A stretch of 64,000 bases of DNA from Schizochytrium sp. TIO01. Lineage: Eukaryota; Protista; Bigyra: Labyrinthulomycetes. The translations under genes and the position numbers were made by a program. Under the pieces are notes generated by a model that made no database searches, was not told the origin of the DNA, and saw only the letters and a program-made list of their open reading frames with translations. The stretch covers positions 2,785,648 to 2,849,647 of the forward strand of contig SMSO01000014.1 of the NCBI GenBank assembly GCA_004764695.1, read 5' to 3'. Positions 32,489 through 62,367 of this stretch are shown here, one piece after another (within the stretch, counting starts at the first letter, position 1; each line of letters begins with the position of its first letter).

Positions 32489-34944
32489 ATGCCAAAGCAA
32501 AATGGGTCTGTTATAGCTGGGGTTATTGGGAATAATAATGGAGAAGTCGGGCTTGCTTGGATCGACTTGGCGAACCCAGTCCTCCATCTCGGTCAGCTAC
32601 GCGACAGTAAGCTGTATGAAGCTACTATTACAGCACTGCGCGAGTGCAACGCTAGTGAAATAGTCTTCCCTTCGACACATACACAGAGTGCCCTCTATGA
32701 AGCTCTTGTGCGAGATGATAAGCTCCCTTGGATTGTTTCTCCACGACCTCGACGGGTGTTTTCTGAGGATTGTGGACTCGACAAAATTCAAAAATTGAGC
32801 GCTGTGGAGCTGGATCTTCGCGAACTTGATCGTCGGTACCTATGCCGTGGGGCTGCTGCAGCACTACTGGCTAATGTTGAGCTAACTCAAGATGCGAGGT
32901 TCGCTCAAGGTTCACTTCGTGTCTGCGTTGACGACGATGACCATACACGAATGACTTTAGATGCAGTAACTATATCCTTATTGGAAATCCTCGAAGACCG
33001 CAGAGCTGTTCTTGAGCAGCATCGCCAGGCAAGTATGCACTCACTAGTTAGTGTCATGGATTATACAGTGACCCCCTGTGGTGGCCGTCGGCTTCGAGCG
33101 GAACTGGTCGCTCCTCCCTGCCTACTTGATAAAATTCATGCCCGACAGGACCTAGTGCAAGAACTTTTAGAAGATGAAACACTTTGTGATCTTCTTGTTG
33201 AGCATCTTCGTAAATTGCATGATTTGGACCAACTGACATCGCATTATGCAGCTCGACCAAAACAATTCACCATGATTACTCTAAAACGCGAAGCTGATAA
33301 CACAATTCGATTGCTCGAAACAGTCCGTGAATTGTTGGCTCTTGACGAAGCTGTTGGTAACCGTGTCGGATCTACTCTAGGGAAAAGAGCTTCTAGGAAG
33401 CATTCGCAACTCCCTGCCTATCCTGAAAACACTTGAACAGCACCTTGCAAAAAAGCTTCAACCAGGTGTTGGTTTTCAGCGGAATCCAGAAGAACAACGA
33501 ATTGAAGTTGTGTATTGCGTGATAGCAGGGATTGATGGTGTGCTTGACGTTGCACGACAAACCTATGCGGAAAAGATTGCTGCAATGAAGCATTACGTAG
33601 CCGAGCTTAATAAGCAATATGCTGATTTGGATGCTTGTCTATGGTTTTCTGTAAAACGGGGCTATCACCTACGCGTTCCTAGGGAGCATGCCACACCATC
33701 AAGGTTAGGGTCTCTCCTTAATACGGCCTGCTTTTCACAAGAAGACGGTAGATTGTACAACAGAAGAGTTAGCAAGTTTGAACTTGAAACAAGATCAAGC
33801 TACACGGGAGGCACTTCGGCGTACGGAAGTCCATCTTGAAGACGTGAGGGGCAAGGTAAGAACTGCGTTGCCAGCTCTCTACGCAATTTCTGAAGCTATC
33901 GCGCTTTTGGATATTCTTCAAGGTTTCGCTCAAATGGCCTCAGAGCACGACGTAGTTCGTCCTAGAGTCTACTCCGGCAAGTTTGGTGCATCCTCAGAGC
34001 CTCTCGAATTGGATGACCATGGCCATCATAAGTCCAAGGAACATGTTAATGGAGTCAACATCAAACAAGGGCGGCATCTACTAGTAGAGACTAGCTTACA
34101 GAAGCAACAACAAAAACTACAACATCAGTTTCAAGATGAGAGTAGTTCGCGTCGTGAAACCAGAGATTGGACTTTTGTTGCCAATGATCTTAATCTATCT
34201 TCCTTGGCGGTTGTAACTGGACCCAATTCTGCAGGAAAATCAACGCTACTTAAACAAACTGCACTTATTGTGATTCTCGCGCACGCTGGGGCATGGGTCC
34301 CCGCTGAGAAAGCAGAAATTGTCCTTATCAACCAGATTCTTACCCGAATTGGTACTGAAGACAATATTGAGGCCAACGCATCCACTTTTAGCTTAGAGAT
34401 GACAGAGTTTGCTCACATCGCTCGAGCCGCTAGTCCATCTTCAGAGACTGGCGCGTATCACCTTGTCCTCATCGACGAGCTTGGTCGAGGGACTAGTTCA
34501 CAAGAAGGACTATCTCTAGCTTGGGCTGCTTCGGAGTACCTCTTACGTAGGGAATTTACACTAACTATATTCGCGACACACTTTCGAGAGATCGAGGCAC
34601 TGCCAGGAATTTCTTTGGTTCGATTTTCTGTGGAGATCGACGAAGTTACTCAAGCTTTAGTCCTCAGTCATACTATGCAACAGCAACTACAAGCTCATCC
34701 GTCCGAAATGGAAAAACCTGAAGCGCAAGGATTTCCTAGTGATTATGGAATTCGCCTTGCGGAAGCATGTGGATTTCCCCGCCATGCTATTGATGACGCC
34801 AGAATTGCACGTGAGCTCTTACTTGAACATCGTGTATCGCTTGAAGCCAAAAGAGCTGGACTATATGTCTTAGTTCGAGATGCGTATATGATGACTTTAC
34901 CGGAGCTTCGCAATGCATTGACTCATCTGCAATCACGAGAATAG
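32489..34944 (+). CDS. MSH4: MutS homolog MSH4 (meiotic), interrupted by two +1 frame breaks (~33381-33390 and ~33709-33721); possible pseudogene or assembly error
   Basis: No mismatch-recognition domain I. Motifs EVGLAWIDL, TPCGGRRLR, GIDGVLDVARQTY, RGYHL, Walker A GPNSAGKST, DNIEANASTFSLEM, DELGRGTS, ATHF and YGIRLA, spread over three ORFs in successive +1 frames. Confidence 0.85.
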
Positions 34945-36774: not shown

Positions 36775-37379
36775 ACATAAAATCTATTGTATGTATGATG
36801 ATGCTCTAAAAACCAACATTCATGATCAGATTGCAGCAGGCATACAAACTAAGCAAAATCACTCTGCAGATGGTAATTCGACTGTAAAGAGAAATTGCAC
36901 ACCAAAAAACTGAGCAATCCATTAACTTTGCACAAATGCACTAAAGCCAAATAAAAATCCTTACATAATACTATATAGTATTCTATTCTTTGTCCCAACT
37001 CAATATATTCCCCCATTCGCACAATTGACACAATAACACTTTCGTCCCTCAACTTAGTGCCAACTCAATAATCATAATATTTCGAATAAATTCTATATCT
37101 ATATGCACGTTCTAATTCACTTAAGCTCTTAAGGAGTAATCCAAACATGACCTGCTTCTTGCTTTAACATAGATATACAAGTGGAGACAGCATGTTGCAA
37201 TAGAGCTGACTGTTTCAACTTTCATTCACTCTCAAGAACGTTATGGACCATGTGAATTTGGTCACATTGAGTAATAGAATGAATGGAAACATAAGATGAG
37301 TGTTCAAAATAGCAAAGTGGTGTACATCTGAGAAGTCATGACACAAGTTAGTGCATATATTTCGAAATGTTTCGCTTAA

Positions 37380-39140
37380 TTAACTATGGTGGCTGTTGGG
37401 TCGCTTCCGCGCACGGCTGACCGATAAAATAAGTCCGGGTTGGCCAGGTTTACCATGAAGAAATTTTATTGCTTCCTGAATCTTAGATTCGTCTTGAAGG
37501 GTCACAAAGCCAAAGTCTCTACCTTCCATAACACGAATGCGAGGTTGGCCATTGTGGTCCCTCTCGATACCAAACTGTTCAAAATGACGGAGGCACTCAT
37601 TGAAAGCAGATGTACTCTCTTTTGGCAAGCCCGATACAAAGAGGACTTTTTCTTCGAGTTGTTGCGATGCACGTGGCCGCCTGTGCCCACCAGTGTGTCC
37701 ACCTCGCGCCCCCCCTCCGTGATGACCACCATAGCCACTTCCGAAGCTGCTAGCATGCGGTCGCATCCCATTCATATGATGGAACTTCTTTTGCGGTGAG
37801 AGTGCAGATGAGCTTCCACCAGACGGTGTGCGTACTTGAGCTGGTCGGTGGCCCCACCACACACCGTGGATAATGACATCCTCCTTATCACCGTAGTGAT
37901 CCTCCACAAGAGGAACGATTAAGTATAAACTTTCTCCGTTTTTTAGGTATCGAGGGTCGGCACGATTGCCGAAAGTATCGAAATGTTTTCCGTCGAGAAA
38001 AACTAGAAAGTCCCGTTGAGTAATTGTAATGCGCAACTCGAAGCGCTTATTTTTTGTGATAGGCATGCTGCTTTGTTTTGCCCGATCAACCCACTTTCCA
38101 CCTACAAAGGCATTCTGTTGAATCTGCTTCTTGCCCCAGCCATCACGCGGGTTAAAATGATATAAGAAAATAGTTTTCTCATCTCTCTCCTTGTATGAGG
38201 CTGAGGGTGCGATATTGATGGAGAAGCGCTCCGATGCATCTGGAAAAGTACCCCAGATGACAACCGTATTGCCCTGCTGTGGACCCTGGCCAGAAACATT
38301 TGTGATTCTTGGAGTATTAGACGGCGCTTCATGTTCGAGTTCAGGAAGTTTGATAACCAGTGGTTCTTTGCTCTCCGTTGATCTCCAGTCGGAAAGCATT
38401 AGCACTCCTGCATCATCATAGTTCGAGCTCAACATACTAATGGACTTGCCTCGGTCCATCTGGCCCTGAGCTAAAGCATGCGATGCACTTGCTGGTGTAA
38501 TCGCGGATTGTGGTGATTGAAGCACCTGGCTATTTTCTGGTAGGGTAGCATTGATTCTTGGTCTCTTCACCACTCCTGCTCTAGGGTCTCGATCCCCAAA
38601 TACGCCTCCTCTGCGTTTGTTTTCCTCCATCTCCTGAGCTCTCCGTGCGGCCGCTACTTGTTCCACTCTCGCTGAAAACTTGGGAACAAGTTTCTTCGAA
38701 TGCACGTACTTAACCAGCAGCCTTTGTTCTTGTTCGGTCAAATCATGCACAATATTTTGATACCTTTCCGGCACAGACAACCTTGACACGCTGCTGCTCA
38801 TGGCTGCGCTTGCAGCTTGGCTAGCCTCAATTGATTCAGCATCATCATCGTCATCATCGTCGTCATCTGATATAACCACTCTCCCTACAGTCCCTGAACC
38901 TGCAGAGCTTCGAAATTGTGTGCTCGATCTCGATCTGTTTTGAGGTTCTTCATAATCGGCGTCGAGAGCGTCGCGTTTGTCCACCGGCTCCGCGATATCG
39001 TCGTCGAGGTCTTCCTGATCATGAAGCGACTTGCGACCTTCGGAATCAGAATCAGATTCGTCACTGCTGCTCACGTCCACGTCCACGTTCGACGCGGCGG
39101 CGGCGCCGCCAGGCGGCAGTTTGATCCGAATCGTTGTCAT
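37380..39140 (-). CDS. Galectin-domain + RRM fusion protein
   Basis: Galectin-like CRD ~38290-37855 (VVIWG...RFSINI...HFNPR...QQN...GKW...FELRI...VFLDGKHF), a Gly/His/RGG linker, then an RRM ~37650-37405 (RNP2 LFVSGL, RNP1 RDFGFV). Likely start ATG 39140. No signal peptide. Confidence 0.8.
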   Translation of the reverse strand: MTTIRIKLPPGGAAAASNVDVDVSSSDESDSDSEGRKSLHDQEDLDDDIAEPVDKRDALDADYEEPQNRSRSSTQFRSSAGSGTVGRVVISDDDDDDDDDAESIEASQAASAAMSSSVSRLSVPERYQNIVHDLTEQEQRLLVKYVHSKKLVPKFSARVEQVAAARRAQEMEENKRRGGVFGDRDPRAGVVKRPRINATLPENSQVLQSPQSAITPASASHALAQGQMDRGKSISMLSSNYDDAGVLMLSDWRSTESKEPLVIKLPELEHEAPSNTPRITNVSGQGPQQGNTVVIWGTFPDASERFSINIAPSASYKERDEKTIFLYHFNPRDGWGKKQIQQNAFVGGKWVDRAKQSSMPITKNKRFELRITITQRDFLVFLDGKHFDTFGNRADPRYLKNGESLYLIVPLVEDHYGDKEDVIIHGVWWGHRPAQVRTPSGGSSSALSPQKKFHHMNGMRPHASSFGSGYGGHHGGGARGGHTGGHRRPRASQQLEEKVLFVSGLPKESTSAFNECLRHFEQFGIERDHNGQPRIRVMEGRDFGFVTLQDESKIQEAIKFLHGKPGQPGLILSVSRARKRPNSHHS

Positions 39141-40166
39141 GGCGGTCGGCCTGGACAAATTCCAGCGAATGAACCACCACAACAGAAGAGGTTAGGTTAA
39201 ACACGGGCTGGAAGGCACGGGTCAGTACAAGAGATGGTTCGATGCCGAGGCTCCCGCCCGGGTTGACGTGGATCCACAGCGTAGGGGAGCTCCTCGCAGG
39301 GGTGGATAACTTTGACTTGGGCTCTTGCTCAAAGTATTATTTTTGGTTTTTCACTTCTCTGCTTTTACTATCTAATCAGTAGGCAGTATGTATTGTTCAA
39401 TAGCAGTAAGGGATAGTAGCACCAGGGTACCTTTGGTACAAGAATGTAATCATACATAATCAGATGACGGCAACGAGAACGACGTTCAGGTTTGACGCAT
39501 TGGGTTCTTTGCTGACGAGAGGTCGAATAGGACATACTTGGCATAAAATACAAAATGAAGACCTAATTTCTTTCGAGCGCTGCCAACTGACCGAATAAAT
39601 TTGGGGGTTCTTCATAGGCTTCATGATAATAGGAAGAGAGTTAACATGGATTTCAATGAATGTATTTTGACTCCTTGATAGAACATGACGTTCTTGTACG
39701 ATAAATTGAATACATAGAAACACAGAAATACTATCTCAACCTTTGCGTTGCTGTGAAGTTTAGATAAAGGTTTGAGACCAAGATTATTTCAAAGTTGCAG
39801 TGTTAGTTAGTTCAACAGCGACATCTTCAAGATATTCAAACTGCCTTCATCAATTACAAGTGAAGTCTCATGGACAAGGAAGATAAGGATAAGAACAGGA
39901 CAAGCGATTTTGGATTGGGCTTAATCTCTTAGATCATGATTTGATGCAATTATCGACGACAGGACAAATTTCAATGTTAAACTATCTCAAGAAACGGATA
40001 CAAGAAATTCGGGACGAATTGAATGAATGTAGGGAGAAAATAAACAGCCAGAAAATGTGTGTCAGAGCGAAAATCGATTTCTCTTTTTGCGCTAGATAGT
40101 TGAATTATTGTGGTAGAAGGTATTTGTTTTCAGGACAGCAAAAGGTTTGGGGAGTAAGTCGCATAC

Positions 40167-58695: not shown

Positions 58696-61600
58696 ATGGA
58701 CCTGGACCAGGCCGGAGAAGATGTCTTCAGGCAGGCCATCATGGACCACGCCCTGAGCTTGGGCATGGACCCCGAGCGAGATGCAGGGTTCCTCTGGCTT
58801 GCTGAAGAGGCATTGACAGCAGAACTTCCCGATGAGTGGGAACCTGTGGAGTCCGATGGTCAGCAGTATTACTACAACCGTCGTACAGGACAGAGTTCGT
58901 GGGAAAACCCGCTTGACGAGCCGTACAGAAGGCTTTTCTTGAAACTGCGCAACAATCCTGAGATTGCGCGGGAAGAGAAACAGCGCAGATCGGCAGCAAG
59001 AAATTGGAATGGAAGTAATTTGGGTGCTGGTTCTATCAGCAAATCATCTGCCGCGGCACAGGGCTCGCAGGATATTGTGTATGCTGACAGAGAGCGAAAA
59101 ATGGCGGAAGAACTTGGGCTTCACCCCCTGGATCTTGGAGAAGACCCTCCAAGCGCGCCCGGTAGCACTTCGAGCAGCGGTGGGGTTTTAACATTTCAGG
59201 GTTCGCAGGCAGATGGATACACGAGCTCGAGAACGTCTGCAATGAGCCAGTCGAACCAGCCGAGCATTGTGAATATCATTGACCACAGAGCAGCAACCAT
59301 GGCTGATGGTGAGGTGGACATGCAGTATCTAGCAGAGTTCAACGACGGCAATACGAACTGGTTCTCTGCTAACACGATGTTTTCAGAGGTGCCCGACCTT
59401 ATTCACGAATACAACAATGGCATTCTCGCGTCGAGGGCCCAGGCAACAAAGTCGTTGGAAGTTCAGCTAGAAGAAGAGCGTGCCCGCGTGGCGGCACTTA
59501 AACGTACACTGGAGGAGGAGCGTACGCAATCTGCAAAGGAGCTCCAAGAGCTGCGGGAAGAACTCGATACAGAGCGTAGAAATGCACTAGATAATTTTGA
59601 CTCTGCATCGCATTATAACAGCGCTAGCAAGGGTCCACGAGATTTCAAAGAACGCGAGGCCATGGCCCAGCAGCTTGAGGACATGGCTTCTGCAAAACGT
59701 AGCGTAGAGCATGCACTTAGTCAGGTGAAGCAGGAGCTTAATGAGGAGATTGCATCCAATCTTGCGTCGCGTAAGCAAGTCGTTGCTCTCGAGGCTGAGC
59801 TTGAGCAGGCCAAACGTCAATGCGATCAAGCACAAGCCGATCACAAGGCTGCCAAACAGCGAGCTCAGGAGGCTGAGCGACGTCTGCGTGATCGCAGTTT
59901 TGCTAACAGCCCTGCAAAGTCAAGGGCTGGGGGCTTTGCAGATAATGAGGATGAAGACCTGGAATCTGAAATCCAACGCTTACGAACTGAACTGTCTCAG
60001 AAATCAAATGAATGTCTCGAAGCTACCGAGGCTCTTGAGGCCTCCAAACGTCAGCTCAATCGTGCTGCAAATGAACGTGATGTTGTGCAAACTGCACTTG
60101 ACAAGGTTAAAGTTGAGTTGGATCTCGAATTCAAAACCACTGCGCGCCTTCGCCAAGATGCTCAACAAGCTCAGGATCGTGCAGACACCCTTGAGCGAGA
60201 ATTGCAAATCTCACGCCATGACCTTAACACAGTCCTTGCAAAGGCATCCCCTGGAAAGTCCACATCCCCATCATCTAAGTCAGTTACAAGCAACGCAGAG
60301 CACGCCGAGGTCAAGTCCTTACGGCAGGAAATCTCAACATTACAGGATAAACTTTCGCACGAGAAATCAGAGGCACTCAATACGCAAGAACGTCTTTATG
60401 CTGCAGAGCGACGAGCAACTCGTGCTGAGAATGAGCGAGATGTTCTTCAAAAGGCTCTTACCCAAGTCAAGGCTGAGCTCCAGCAGGAGTTTACAACTTC
60501 TGCTGGTTTGCGTCAAGAGGCTCAAAAGTTGCAGGACAAGGTAGACTCTCACGAACGCGAGATTCAATCTTTGCGAGACGAGTTGCAAGATGTCCAGAAT
60601 GCTAGCAAGAAGAATGATAATGTGGATGACGATGCTACACGCAAGCTTGAGGATCTCCAGAACACAATTCACAAGCTGCGTGACTCCCTTCGTCAAAAGG
60701 ATAGTGAACTTGATGATACGCATGCAAATCTTTTGGCTGCTCAAGAACAGGCACAGAGCGCAACCCGTAGCCGCGATCGTGATGCTGCAGAACGTGAGGT
60801 TTTGGAGAACTCAGCTCGTACTGCCAAGGAGGATCTTGCACGCGAGTCTGCCCTTGCAGCTCAAATGCGTCGCGAGCTCACAGCAGCACAGGTGAAGATT
60901 GAAGAGATGGGTAAGCAGGCAGGAGATAAAGAAGCTCATGAGCAACAGTTAGCTGATATGGATATGAAGTTGCGCCGTAGCAAGGAGAAGGTCCGAACTC
61001 TTGAGCAGACTCTGGCTCGCTGCAAGGATGAAATGGACACTGTCATTCGAGCGCATGATGCTCGCACAGGTGCCGCCAATGAAGAACGGGTGCGCGATCT
61101 TGAAGAGCAGCTTCGCGAAAGGGATTCACAGATGCAACGCCAAACAGAGGCTGTGGAGCAAAAAGCAAAGAAGATTGCCTCTCTCGAACATGAAATTGAA
61201 GTCATTCGAAGTGCAGAAACCATTGATCCGATGGAGCTTGAGCGTACAAAGCAAGAACTTGCCGCAGCCTCGGAGCGACTTGCCGAAGAAATTCGAAAGC
61301 GCCGCGCTATTCACAACAAGCTTGTCGACCTACAGGGTAATATTCGCGTCTATTGTAGAGTACGTCCTGTGCTAGTTCACGAGACAAAGTCTGGTCGTGC
61401 AGATGTCGTTGTGCGTTTTCCCAATGAAGGTGAGATTAAGTTACTTCAGTCTTTGTCTTGCCGTGACCAGGAAGATGCCTTCGAGTTCGACCAGGTCTTT
61501 CAACCTACTGCTCAGCAATCGCAGGTCTTTTCCCAGGTCGAGCCACTGGTTCAGTCTGCACTCGACGGTTATAATGTATGTATCTTTGCTTACGGTCAAA

Positions 61601-62367
61601 CTGGATCTGGTAAGACGTACACCATGGACGGTACAGAATCGGACCGTGGTGTTATCCACCGTACTTTTGAGACCTTATTCCAGACGGTTGAGGAACGCAA
61701 GGGTCTCGTAGAATATGCTGTTGAGATGTCAATGCTTGAAATTTACAATGAGACGATTCGTGATCTGTTTGCACCACCAGTGGACCCCAAACAACTTCCT
61801 CAGCACCAAGTGCGGAGGAAACTGGAAGTTCGCCAAGGCCAGCACGGTCTGCATGTCCCTGGCCTTGAGCAAGTTTCAATTGATAACCTCGAGCTTGTTG
61901 AACAGCTCATGAAGAAGGGCATTCAGAATCGCACTGTCGGTCAACACAATGTTAATCAGCATTCCAGTCGTTCACACCTTGTGGTAACAATAACTCTGGT
62001 CGCCAAGCACGAAACGCTTGTTACTCGATCTAAGCTAAATTTGATTGATCTTGCTGGGTCTGAGCGCCTTGATAAAACCAATGCATCTGGCGGAATGCTA
62101 ACTGAAGCAAAAGCCATCAACAAGTCTCTTTCGGCTCTTGGAAACGTTATTCAAGCGCTTGGCAACGAGAAGAAAGATCACGTACCTTTTCGTGATTCAA
62201 AGCTCACTTACTTACTACAAGATTCTCTTTGTGGTACTTCCAAGGTATTGATGTTTGTGAACGTCTCTCCCGTGGAATGGAATTCACAAGAAACTTTATG
62301 TTCACTTACATTTGCTCAACGATGCCGCCGCACTCAGCTGGGCCAAGCTGTAAAACAGAAACAGTGA
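58696..62367 (+). CDS. C-terminal-motor kinesin (kinesin-14) with an N-terminal CEP164-like WW module and long coiled coil
   Basis: Motor: GNIRVYCRVRP, DGYNVCIFAYGQTGSGKT, NQHSSRSH, DLAGSER, HVPFRDSKLT. N-terminus: LGMDPERDAGFLWLAEEALTAELPDEW...YYYNRRTGQSSWENP. First ATG at 58696; the ORF is open from 58630. Confidence 0.92.
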   Translation: MDLDQAGEDVFRQAIMDHALSLGMDPERDAGFLWLAEEALTAELPDEWEPVESDGQQYYYNRRTGQSSWENPLDEPYRRLFLKLRNNPEIAREEKQRRSAARNWNGSNLGAGSISKSSAAAQGSQDIVYADRERKMAEELGLHPLDLGEDPPSAPGSTSSSGGVLTFQGSQADGYTSSRTSAMSQSNQPSIVNIIDHRAATMADGEVDMQYLAEFNDGNTNWFSANTMFSEVPDLIHEYNNGILASRAQATKSLEVQLEEERARVAALKRTLEEERTQSAKELQELREELDTERRNALDNFDSASHYNSASKGPRDFKEREAMAQQLEDMASAKRSVEHALSQVKQELNEEIASNLASRKQVVALEAELEQAKRQCDQAQADHKAAKQRAQEAERRLRDRSFANSPAKSRAGGFADNEDEDLESEIQRLRTELSQKSNECLEATEALEASKRQLNRAANERDVVQTALDKVKVELDLEFKTTARLRQDAQQAQDRADTLERELQISRHDLNTVLAKASPGKSTSPSSKSVTSNAEHAEVKSLRQEISTLQDKLSHEKSEALNTQERLYAAERRATRAENERDVLQKALTQVKAELQQEFTTSAGLRQEAQKLQDKVDSHEREIQSLRDELQDVQNASKKNDNVDDDATRKLEDLQNTIHKLRDSLRQKDSELDDTHANLLAAQEQAQSATRSRDRDAAEREVLENSARTAKEDLARESALAAQMRRELTAAQVKIEEMGKQAGDKEAHEQQLADMDMKLRRSKEKVRTLEQTLARCKDEMDTVIRAHDARTGAANEERVRDLEEQLRERDSQMQRQTEAVEQKAKKIASLEHEIEVIRSAETIDPMELERTKQELAAASERLAEEIRKRRAIHNKLVDLQGNIRVYCRVRPVLVHETKSGRADVVVRFPNEGEIKLLQSLSCRDQEDAFEFDQVFQPTAQQSQVFSQVEPLVQSALDGYNVCIFAYGQTGSGKTYTMDGTESDRGVIHRTFETLFQTVEERKGLVEYAVEMSMLEIYNETIRDLFAPPVDPKQLPQHQVRRKLEVRQGQHGLHVPGLEQVSIDNLELVEQLMKKGIQNRTVGQHNVNQHSSRSHLVVTITLVAKHETLVTRSKLNLIDLAGSERLDKTNASGGMLTEAKAINKSLSALGNVIQALGNEKKDHVPFRDSKLTYLLQDSLCGTSKVLMFVNVSPVEWNSQETLCSLTFAQRCRRTQLGQAVKQKQ

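Follow-up and report, generated by a model that had tools for sequence, protein, structure and literature searches.

On the reverse strand of the 64,000-nucleotide (nt) stretch of Schizochytrium sp. [quoted passage not shown] The features of this gene are collected in Table 1. An initial annotation made from the sequence alone had described a single ORF with a galectin domain and a C-terminal RRM, an acidic N-terminus and the basic motifs KRPR and RKRP (the latter at residues 578-581), all of which were recovered in our analysis, and it had noted the lack of a signal peptide, with which we agree on a by-eye judgement only, none being seen in the acidic N-terminus. The closest named relative of P0001 is a 'Galectin-related protein' of Hondaea fermentalgiana (64% full-length, 69% over residues 270-586).

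Table 1 Features of the galectin-RRM gene, in window coordinates
Feature	Coordinates	Strand	Basis and remarks
ORF (P0001), 586 residues, no internal stop	37380..39140	-	Open reading frame translation
Transcript-like unit, unspliced	36990..39335	-	Ends of single contigs; ~190 nt 5′ and ~390 nt 3′ of the ORF
N-terminal extension, residues 1-120, acidic, low-complexity	38781..39140	-	31 D/E vs 11 K/R; aligns poorly across the family
Helix H1, residues 134-154	38679..38741	-	Matches NELF-E alpha-1; predicted NELF-B-docking helix
KRPR, residues 192-195, putative nuclear localisation signal	38556..38567	-	Sequence motif
Galectin-fold domain, residues ~243-432	37845..38414	-	Family-specific C-terminal strands, W-W-G end
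H-F-N-P-R galactose-site motif, residues 328-332	38145..38159	-	H in 60, N in 59 and R in 63 of 69 representatives
Gly/His/Ser linker, residues 433-496, disordered, not conserved	37653..37844	-	Predicted local distance difference test (pLDDT) <50
C-terminal RRM, residues 497-578	37407..37652	-	Model fold; RRM in 53 of 69 representatives

Eight public sequencing runs were assembled over the locus. Six gave one contig across the whole ORF, with ends near 36990-37060 and 39280-39335 and no joints, the seventh gave two contigs with both domains together on one of them, and the eighth continued across intergenic DNA, as a genomic run does. P0001 is likely a single unspliced transcript, with the qualification that the RNA status of the runs is the tool's guess, none being recorded as RNA, so that the contigs hint at transcription rather than prove it. 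Seven of the eight runs carry a 12-nt in-frame insertion at window position 38826 (four residues, present in Hondaea), the window allele being the shorter one.

Galectin and RRM domains across the stramenopiles

Both profile and structure comparisons bore out the galectin fold. Pfam PF00337 matched P0001 at 63.8 bits (E 1.4e-17), the cut-off being 22.1, and an AlphaFold2 model of residues 238-586, built from a 40-sequence alignment (mean pLDDT 84.4) and superseding a single-sequence fold (mean pLDDT 43.5), showed two folded domains joined by a disordered linker. The top matches of the first domain were galectins, with galectin-8 and -9 found by Foldseek (E 2.8e-12) and superposed by VIA-align (Z 18.8, root-mean-square deviation (rmsd) 2.0 Å, 144 residues), and ESM Atlas returned only a generic galectin cluster, at 0.75, for residues 240-586. 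The second domain, annotated earlier as an RRM with RNP2 and RNP1, is modelled with the fold of known RRMs, on which VIA-align superposed it (Z 11.3, rmsd 1.6 Å over 74 residues), although in Pfam P0001 alone falls below the cut-off (PF00076, E 0.1), diatom and oomycete members scoring above it. The family RRM profile matched 415 PDB sequences at E<=0.001, and NCBIfam assigned this domain to generic RRM families only. Between the two domains, the Gly/His/RGG linker of the earlier description is indeed a disordered Gly/His/Ser segment in P0001, but RGG is not a family feature: linkers range from 16 to 93 residues (median 23) and RGG occurs in 3 of 53, and a conserved RGG linker was therefore rejected.

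Homologues were gathered in several searches (9 matches among 1799 candidates, the best 150 of 370 matches, 102 matches among 7990 scored, plus cluster look-ups), and 132 of the 409 proteins collected belong to the galectin-RRM family, reducing to 69 representatives at 60% identity. All named members are stramenopiles, namely Hondaea, Phytophthora, Globisporangium, Aphanomyces, Ectocarpus, Chrysoparadoxa, the MAST-4 group and the diatoms Cylindrotheca, Nitzschia, Pseudo-nitzschia, Ditylum, Skeletonema, Cyclostephanos and Corethron, and since many of the sequences lack species names the true range may be wider. An RRM was recognised in 53 of the 69 representatives, and most of the other 16 end shortly past the galectin domain. 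That P0001 is an artefact, with two adjacent genes or a mis-assembly mistaken for a single ORF, as its sub-threshold RRM score might suggest, is extremely improbable and was rejected, given the uninterrupted ORF, the phylum-wide presence of the fusion and the single contigs of independent runs.

A galectin tree in which 49 domains chosen by hand from the family were set beside 14 tandem-type galectins, built by a quick method with support from the Shimodaira-Hasegawa-like approximate likelihood ratio test (SH-aLRT) only, placed the family on one side of a branch (SH-aLRT 96) and separated the Hondaea group from oomycetes and ochrophytes (93), with the diatoms nested. This branching agrees with the accepted stramenopile tree, indicating vertical descent from the ancestor of the stramenopiles. 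In 51 of 59 representatives a basic cluster precedes the galectin domain, and the protein is, to judge from its sequence, probably nuclear. Automatic labels in databases already show the galectin and RRM pair, and no study of the family was found among the papers listed in searches on galectins, stramenopiles, diatoms, Phytophthora and protist galectin evolution, in which subscription papers were little covered; in the Blastocystis genome paper, 'galectin' occurs in a reference only. The initial annotation, which put the architecture forward as not known to have been described, was right to this extent, the domain pair being present in automatic annotation and no characterisation in print having been found. 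The galectin-RRM proteins are thus a real, ancient and undescribed stramenopile family that spans diatoms, brown algae, oomycetes and thraustochytrids.

The family keeps one part of the galactose site and has lost another. The H-x-N-x-R motif and the downstream N and W noted earlier are all present in P0001, as H328, N330, R332, N343 and W350, and these are conserved in 60, 59, 63, 58 and 66 of the 69 representatives, respectively. The W-x-x-E-x-R motif is absent from P0001, and at those columns E is found in 8 and R in 7 of the 69. Its replacement by W-V-D-R-A-K had been described as a charge reversal, and of that description the loss of W-x-x-E-x-R stands while the reversal belongs to P0001 and not to the family: at column 353 R occurs in P0001 alone, other members having V, I, E or P, and a conserved reversal was rejected. 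Since Hondaea and other close orthologues read W-G-x-x-D-R/K here, W-V-D-R-A-K is a local two-residue shortening in P0001. In one clade (P0028, P0030, P0039, P0040, P0041, P0082 and P0095; support 98) the H-N-R motif has been lost with the fold and helix kept, as is the RRM in the six members that extend that far, indicating that sugar binding is not indispensable. Six complete members of this clade share a conserved Q-V/L-P-x-W-F tail. The Q-N and W-G pattern without Glu at residues 328-355 may resemble that of the galectin-like domain of plant hydroxyproline O-galactosyltransferases.

The N-terminal helix and NELF-E

H1, which the initial annotation overlooked, is the most informative feature of the family, and it directs attention to NELF-E and the pausing of Pol II, not to the spliceosome. 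It was found in 47 of the 59 representatives having an N-terminal segment, usually near the N-terminus (median start 30), and 39 of the 69 representatives have both helix and RRM. In this set of 47, which is diatom-rich and non-independent, the register reads L1 in 23, T2 in 41, E5 in 47, L8 in 45 and Y/F12 in 44, with K/R at position 16 in 32 and at position 20 in 26; by the aligned register, these two positions are Lys23 and Lys27 of human NELF-E.

The leucine-zipper N-terminus of NELF-E binds NELF-B (PMC6769589), residues 1-138 being sufficient for this (PMC4940160), and its helix alpha-1 touches downstream DNA through Lys23, Lys27 and Lys34 (PMC11881899). The C-terminus reaches the cap-binding complex by a Trp helix together with an RxxxxY motif, at sites that NCBP3 uses too, and NELF-paused Pol II recruits Integrator (PMC5670239; 10.1101/2023.07.25.550453). 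A survey by reciprocal BLAST and hidden Markov models (HMMs) reports NELF-B and NELF-C/D as widespread in eukaryotes and NELF-E from animals only, placing the origin of NELF-E at or just before animals and associating it with promoter-proximal pausing of the focal kind and with the control of developmental genes (10.1101/2023.02.19.529146). The literature that we searched, with little coverage of subscription papers, yielded among the papers listed no relevant one on NELF or pausing in diatoms, oomycetes or Phytophthora.

For comparison, a set of 123 NELF-E proteins was assembled from three arthropod sequences on metagenome contigs, identified through a PDB search (human NELF-E, E 2.7e-51), and the best 120 of 290 homologues. 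Helix profiles built from the galectin-RRM family only matched these proteins at residues ~8-36, and the median score lay at 16.5-23.2 bits according to which profile and null2 setting were used. The tight 34-sequence profile gave a median of 20.1 bits, with E<=0.01 in 82 and E<=1 in 119 of the 123 (PDB size), and its best score among 177,635 real PDB sequences was 12.5 bits. The match lies at the corresponding end of the protein, as 119 of the 123 begin in the first 15 residues with iterated family profiles. Scores of at least 10 bits were reached with family profiles by none of 2460 shuffled NELF-E sequences, none of 383 window reading frames and 5 of 154 other proteins, all five being truncated family members. 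Profile-profile comparison of H1 with NELF-E scored 36.1 (probability 91.5), compared to a maximum of 18.6 over 200 column shuffles. In the reverse direction, 27 of 59 representatives contained the motif at p<=0.01 when scanned with a NELF-E helix matrix. With a NELF-E HMM, 10 of 113 family segments scored at least 5 bits, a level reached by 1 of 1130 shuffles, by 1 of 113 reversed segments and by 0 of 145 others.

At the other end of the protein, the position of the RRM, single and C-terminal, matches that in NELF-E, and the family RRM HMM scored NELF-E RRMs (median 36.9, n = 87) above other RRMs (29.0, n = 81). Human NELF-E has a Trp-containing segment beyond the RRM (W345); in the family, 29 of 53 representatives, chiefly from diatoms and one further clade, carry a Trp past the RRM, and P0001 does not. 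Diatom members have a conserved helix-like tail C-terminal to the RRM with a terminal Trp, a candidate for the CBP80 Trp pocket used by NELF-E and NCBP3.

The same galectin subfamily was found in two further fusions, each confined to one lineage. In P0249 (727 residues), an INTS11 region (residues ~10-507; INTS11 E 7e-102, CPSF73 E 3e-62) is followed by a C-terminal galectin domain (~564-700). In P0086, from a MAST-4 cluster of 11 members, the galectin domain is N-terminal to an NCBP3 domain (residues 125-233 and 359-410), so that NCBP3 and a weak C-terminal Tho1/MOS11 match replace the usual RRM, and helix H1 is lacking. INTS11 and NCBP3 have each been linked to NELF or the cap-binding complex (PMC5670239; 10.1101/2023.07.25.550453). 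As the 5′ end of transcripts made by Pol II is where both of them work, these fusions back a nuclear RNA role for the family, whether its members are NELF-E orthologues or unrelated RNA-binding proteins.

Orthology and alternative explanations

Given the match of H1 to NELF-E and the family order of N-terminal helix, insert and one C-terminal RRM, which is that of NELF-E and counts for orthology, we infer that the galectin-RRM protein may well be a divergent stramenopile orthologue of NELF-E. The clade without the H-N-R motif argues the same way, as it keeps the helix and RRM and has the best helix matches to NELF-E. Under this interpretation, the basic motifs would bring the protein into the nucleus, H1 would bind to NELF-B, its basic end turned toward downstream DNA, like human NELF-E alpha-1, and the RRM would contact nascent RNA. 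The galectin domain would have been acquired once, in the ancestor of the stramenopiles, within a stretch that is disordered in animals (Arg-Asp (RD) repeats in vertebrates), and may serve as an accessory docking or ligand module, perhaps with a weak galactose site. Such an insert could also explain why NELF-E would have been missed outside animals, because it would divert reciprocal best matches to galectins, which top the searches; with the full-length family profile, galectins and proteins with several RRMs took up the PDB list. ESM Atlas gave no usable match for the N-terminus of the Aphanomyces member.

A number of observations weigh against orthology. The comparison with NELF-E was post hoc, having been made once the alignment had been viewed, and the match spans ~22 columns of an N-capped amphipathic helix. 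All 123 NELF-E proteins are arthropod and amount to one independent lineage, the first three of them having been retrieved with a pattern that included the helix motif. Although the PDB copy searched includes human NELF-E, neither of the family N-terminal profiles matched it at E<=10, one returning nothing and the other, the tight 34-sequence profile, seven unrelated matches. The second NELF-E helix (arthropod residues 55-70) was not detected, either by matrix (p<=0.01 in 1 and p<=0.05 in 5 of 59 representatives) or by HMM (0 of 113 family segments at 5 bits), and the RxxxxY cap-complex motif occurs in 1 of 53 family tails, compared to 114 of 123 NELF-E proteins. Because the second helix and RxxxxY are wanting, these proteins cannot be counted as established NELF-E family members, and NELF-B binding is predicted from H1. 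The RRM is compatible with NELF-E and not diagnostic of it: NELF-E was absent from the best 60 of the 415 PDB matches of the family RRM profile and ranked 4th or 5th of 23 RRM groups for the family RRM, the NELF-E RRM HMM scored family RRMs (median 7.6, n = 108) below other RRMs (16.9), and an RRM tree (81 rows, 93 columns, quick method) was unresolved, the family itself not being held together. Finally, only one sequence, from a contig of 4.9 kb, shows the INTS11 fusion, which may be a gene-calling chimera.

Several of these observations would be expected if the family were a stramenopile-specific nuclear RNA-binding protein without relation to NELF-E, its helix having arisen by convergence to dock on some other partner and its galectin fold acting as a protein-interaction module in cap-binding, Integrator or messenger ribonucleoprotein complexes, and we consider this a possible explanation, held tentatively. 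The RRM that is not closest to NELF-E, the failure of family profiles to find human NELF-E and the lack of a second helix and of RxxxxY all favour it, as does the reuse of the galectin subfamily with INTS11 and NCBP3, and galectin-8 with a peptide ligand has been seen in a solved structure (4HAN). Against it stands the helix match, ~8 bits above every real PDB sequence, which sits at the corresponding end of a protein whose C-terminal RRM is likewise single.

The initial annotation had instead suggested a nuclear lectin that couples glycan recognition to RNA binding, as proposed for galectin-1 and -3 in splicing. Conservation of H, N, R, N and W in 58-66 of the 69 representatives suggests a pocket under selection, but the Glu and Arg of the lactose site are seldom retained, the charge reversal is not conserved, seven members form a clade without a sugar site and nothing points to the spliceosome, and we regard this explanation as unlikely. 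The proposed link to splicing, anionic glycans or glycosylated RNA is unsupported, as the charge swap beneath it is idiosyncratic to P0001 and the H-N-R-less clade exists. A sugar-binding side role is compatible with orthology to NELF-E. A bolder form of that idea, in which NELF-E is far older than animals and the galectin domain has kept its binding of a galactoside or of a glycosylated nuclear protein, allowing a sugar ligand to gate Pol II pausing by a NELF complex in diatoms, oomycetes and thraustochytrids, is conceivable and rather doubtful.

If the family is NELF-E, its presence throughout stramenopiles moves the origin of NELF-E to near the last eukaryotic common ancestor, predicts NELF-dependent pausing in diatoms, brown algae and thraustochytrids, and provides the first case of a Pol II factor with a galectin fold built in. 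Should the link to NELF-E fail, an undescribed phylum-wide galectin-RRM family comes to light, and the repeated fusion of galectin folds to nuclear RNA-processing proteins (RRM, INTS11, NCBP3) bears on the nuclear role of galectins, a long-open question.

The neighbours of the P0001 gene in the window are a leucine-rich repeat gene and Hsp90 (Pfam). Elsewhere in the window, a MutS-family gene (32489-34944, forward strand) appears as a MutS II/III ORF (32489-33436) and a MutS V ORF (33934-34944), owing to an intron, a frameshift or a sequence error, and a 1223-residue protein encoded at 58696-62367 (forward strand) begins with a WW domain and has a kinesin motor domain towards its C-terminus.

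Comparison with known systems

The database orthologues carry automatic names only, such as 'Galectin-related protein' in Hondaea, 'Galectin' in Phytophthora, Aphanomyces, Cylindrotheca and Ditylum, and 'Galactoside-binding lectin/RNA recognition motif' at JGI, and neither a characterisation nor a NELF link for them was found in the literature searched. With human galectin-related protein (GRP, 3B9C), GRIFIN (5NLD) and fungal CGL3 (2R0F), which are among the structural matches of the P0001 model, the family shares the galectin fold. In these three proteins, the canonical sugar site is altered; unlike the family, they are stand-alone domains with no RRM and no N-terminal helix. Animal galectins (the N-terminal domains of galectin-8, -9 and -4, and galectin-3) resemble the family in fold, in H-x-N-x-R, N and W and in that no signal peptide is seen, whereas the stramenopile proteins lack E-x-R, have extra strands and the W-W-G end, carry a single domain fused to an RRM and form their own clade against the 14 tandem-type galectins (SH-aLRT 96).

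NELF-E (RDBP) differs from the family in several respects. The stramenopile proteins have a folded galectin domain in the insert and no detectable second helix, RxxxxY or terminal xDxF cap-complex peptide; the thraustochytrid members bear a long acidic extension ahead of the helix; and the RRM is not demonstrably closest to that of NELF-E. The likeness lies in the helix register L-T-x-x-E-x-x-L-x-x-x-Y/F-x-x-h-K, one RRM near the C-terminus, a variable insert between the two and basic motifs.
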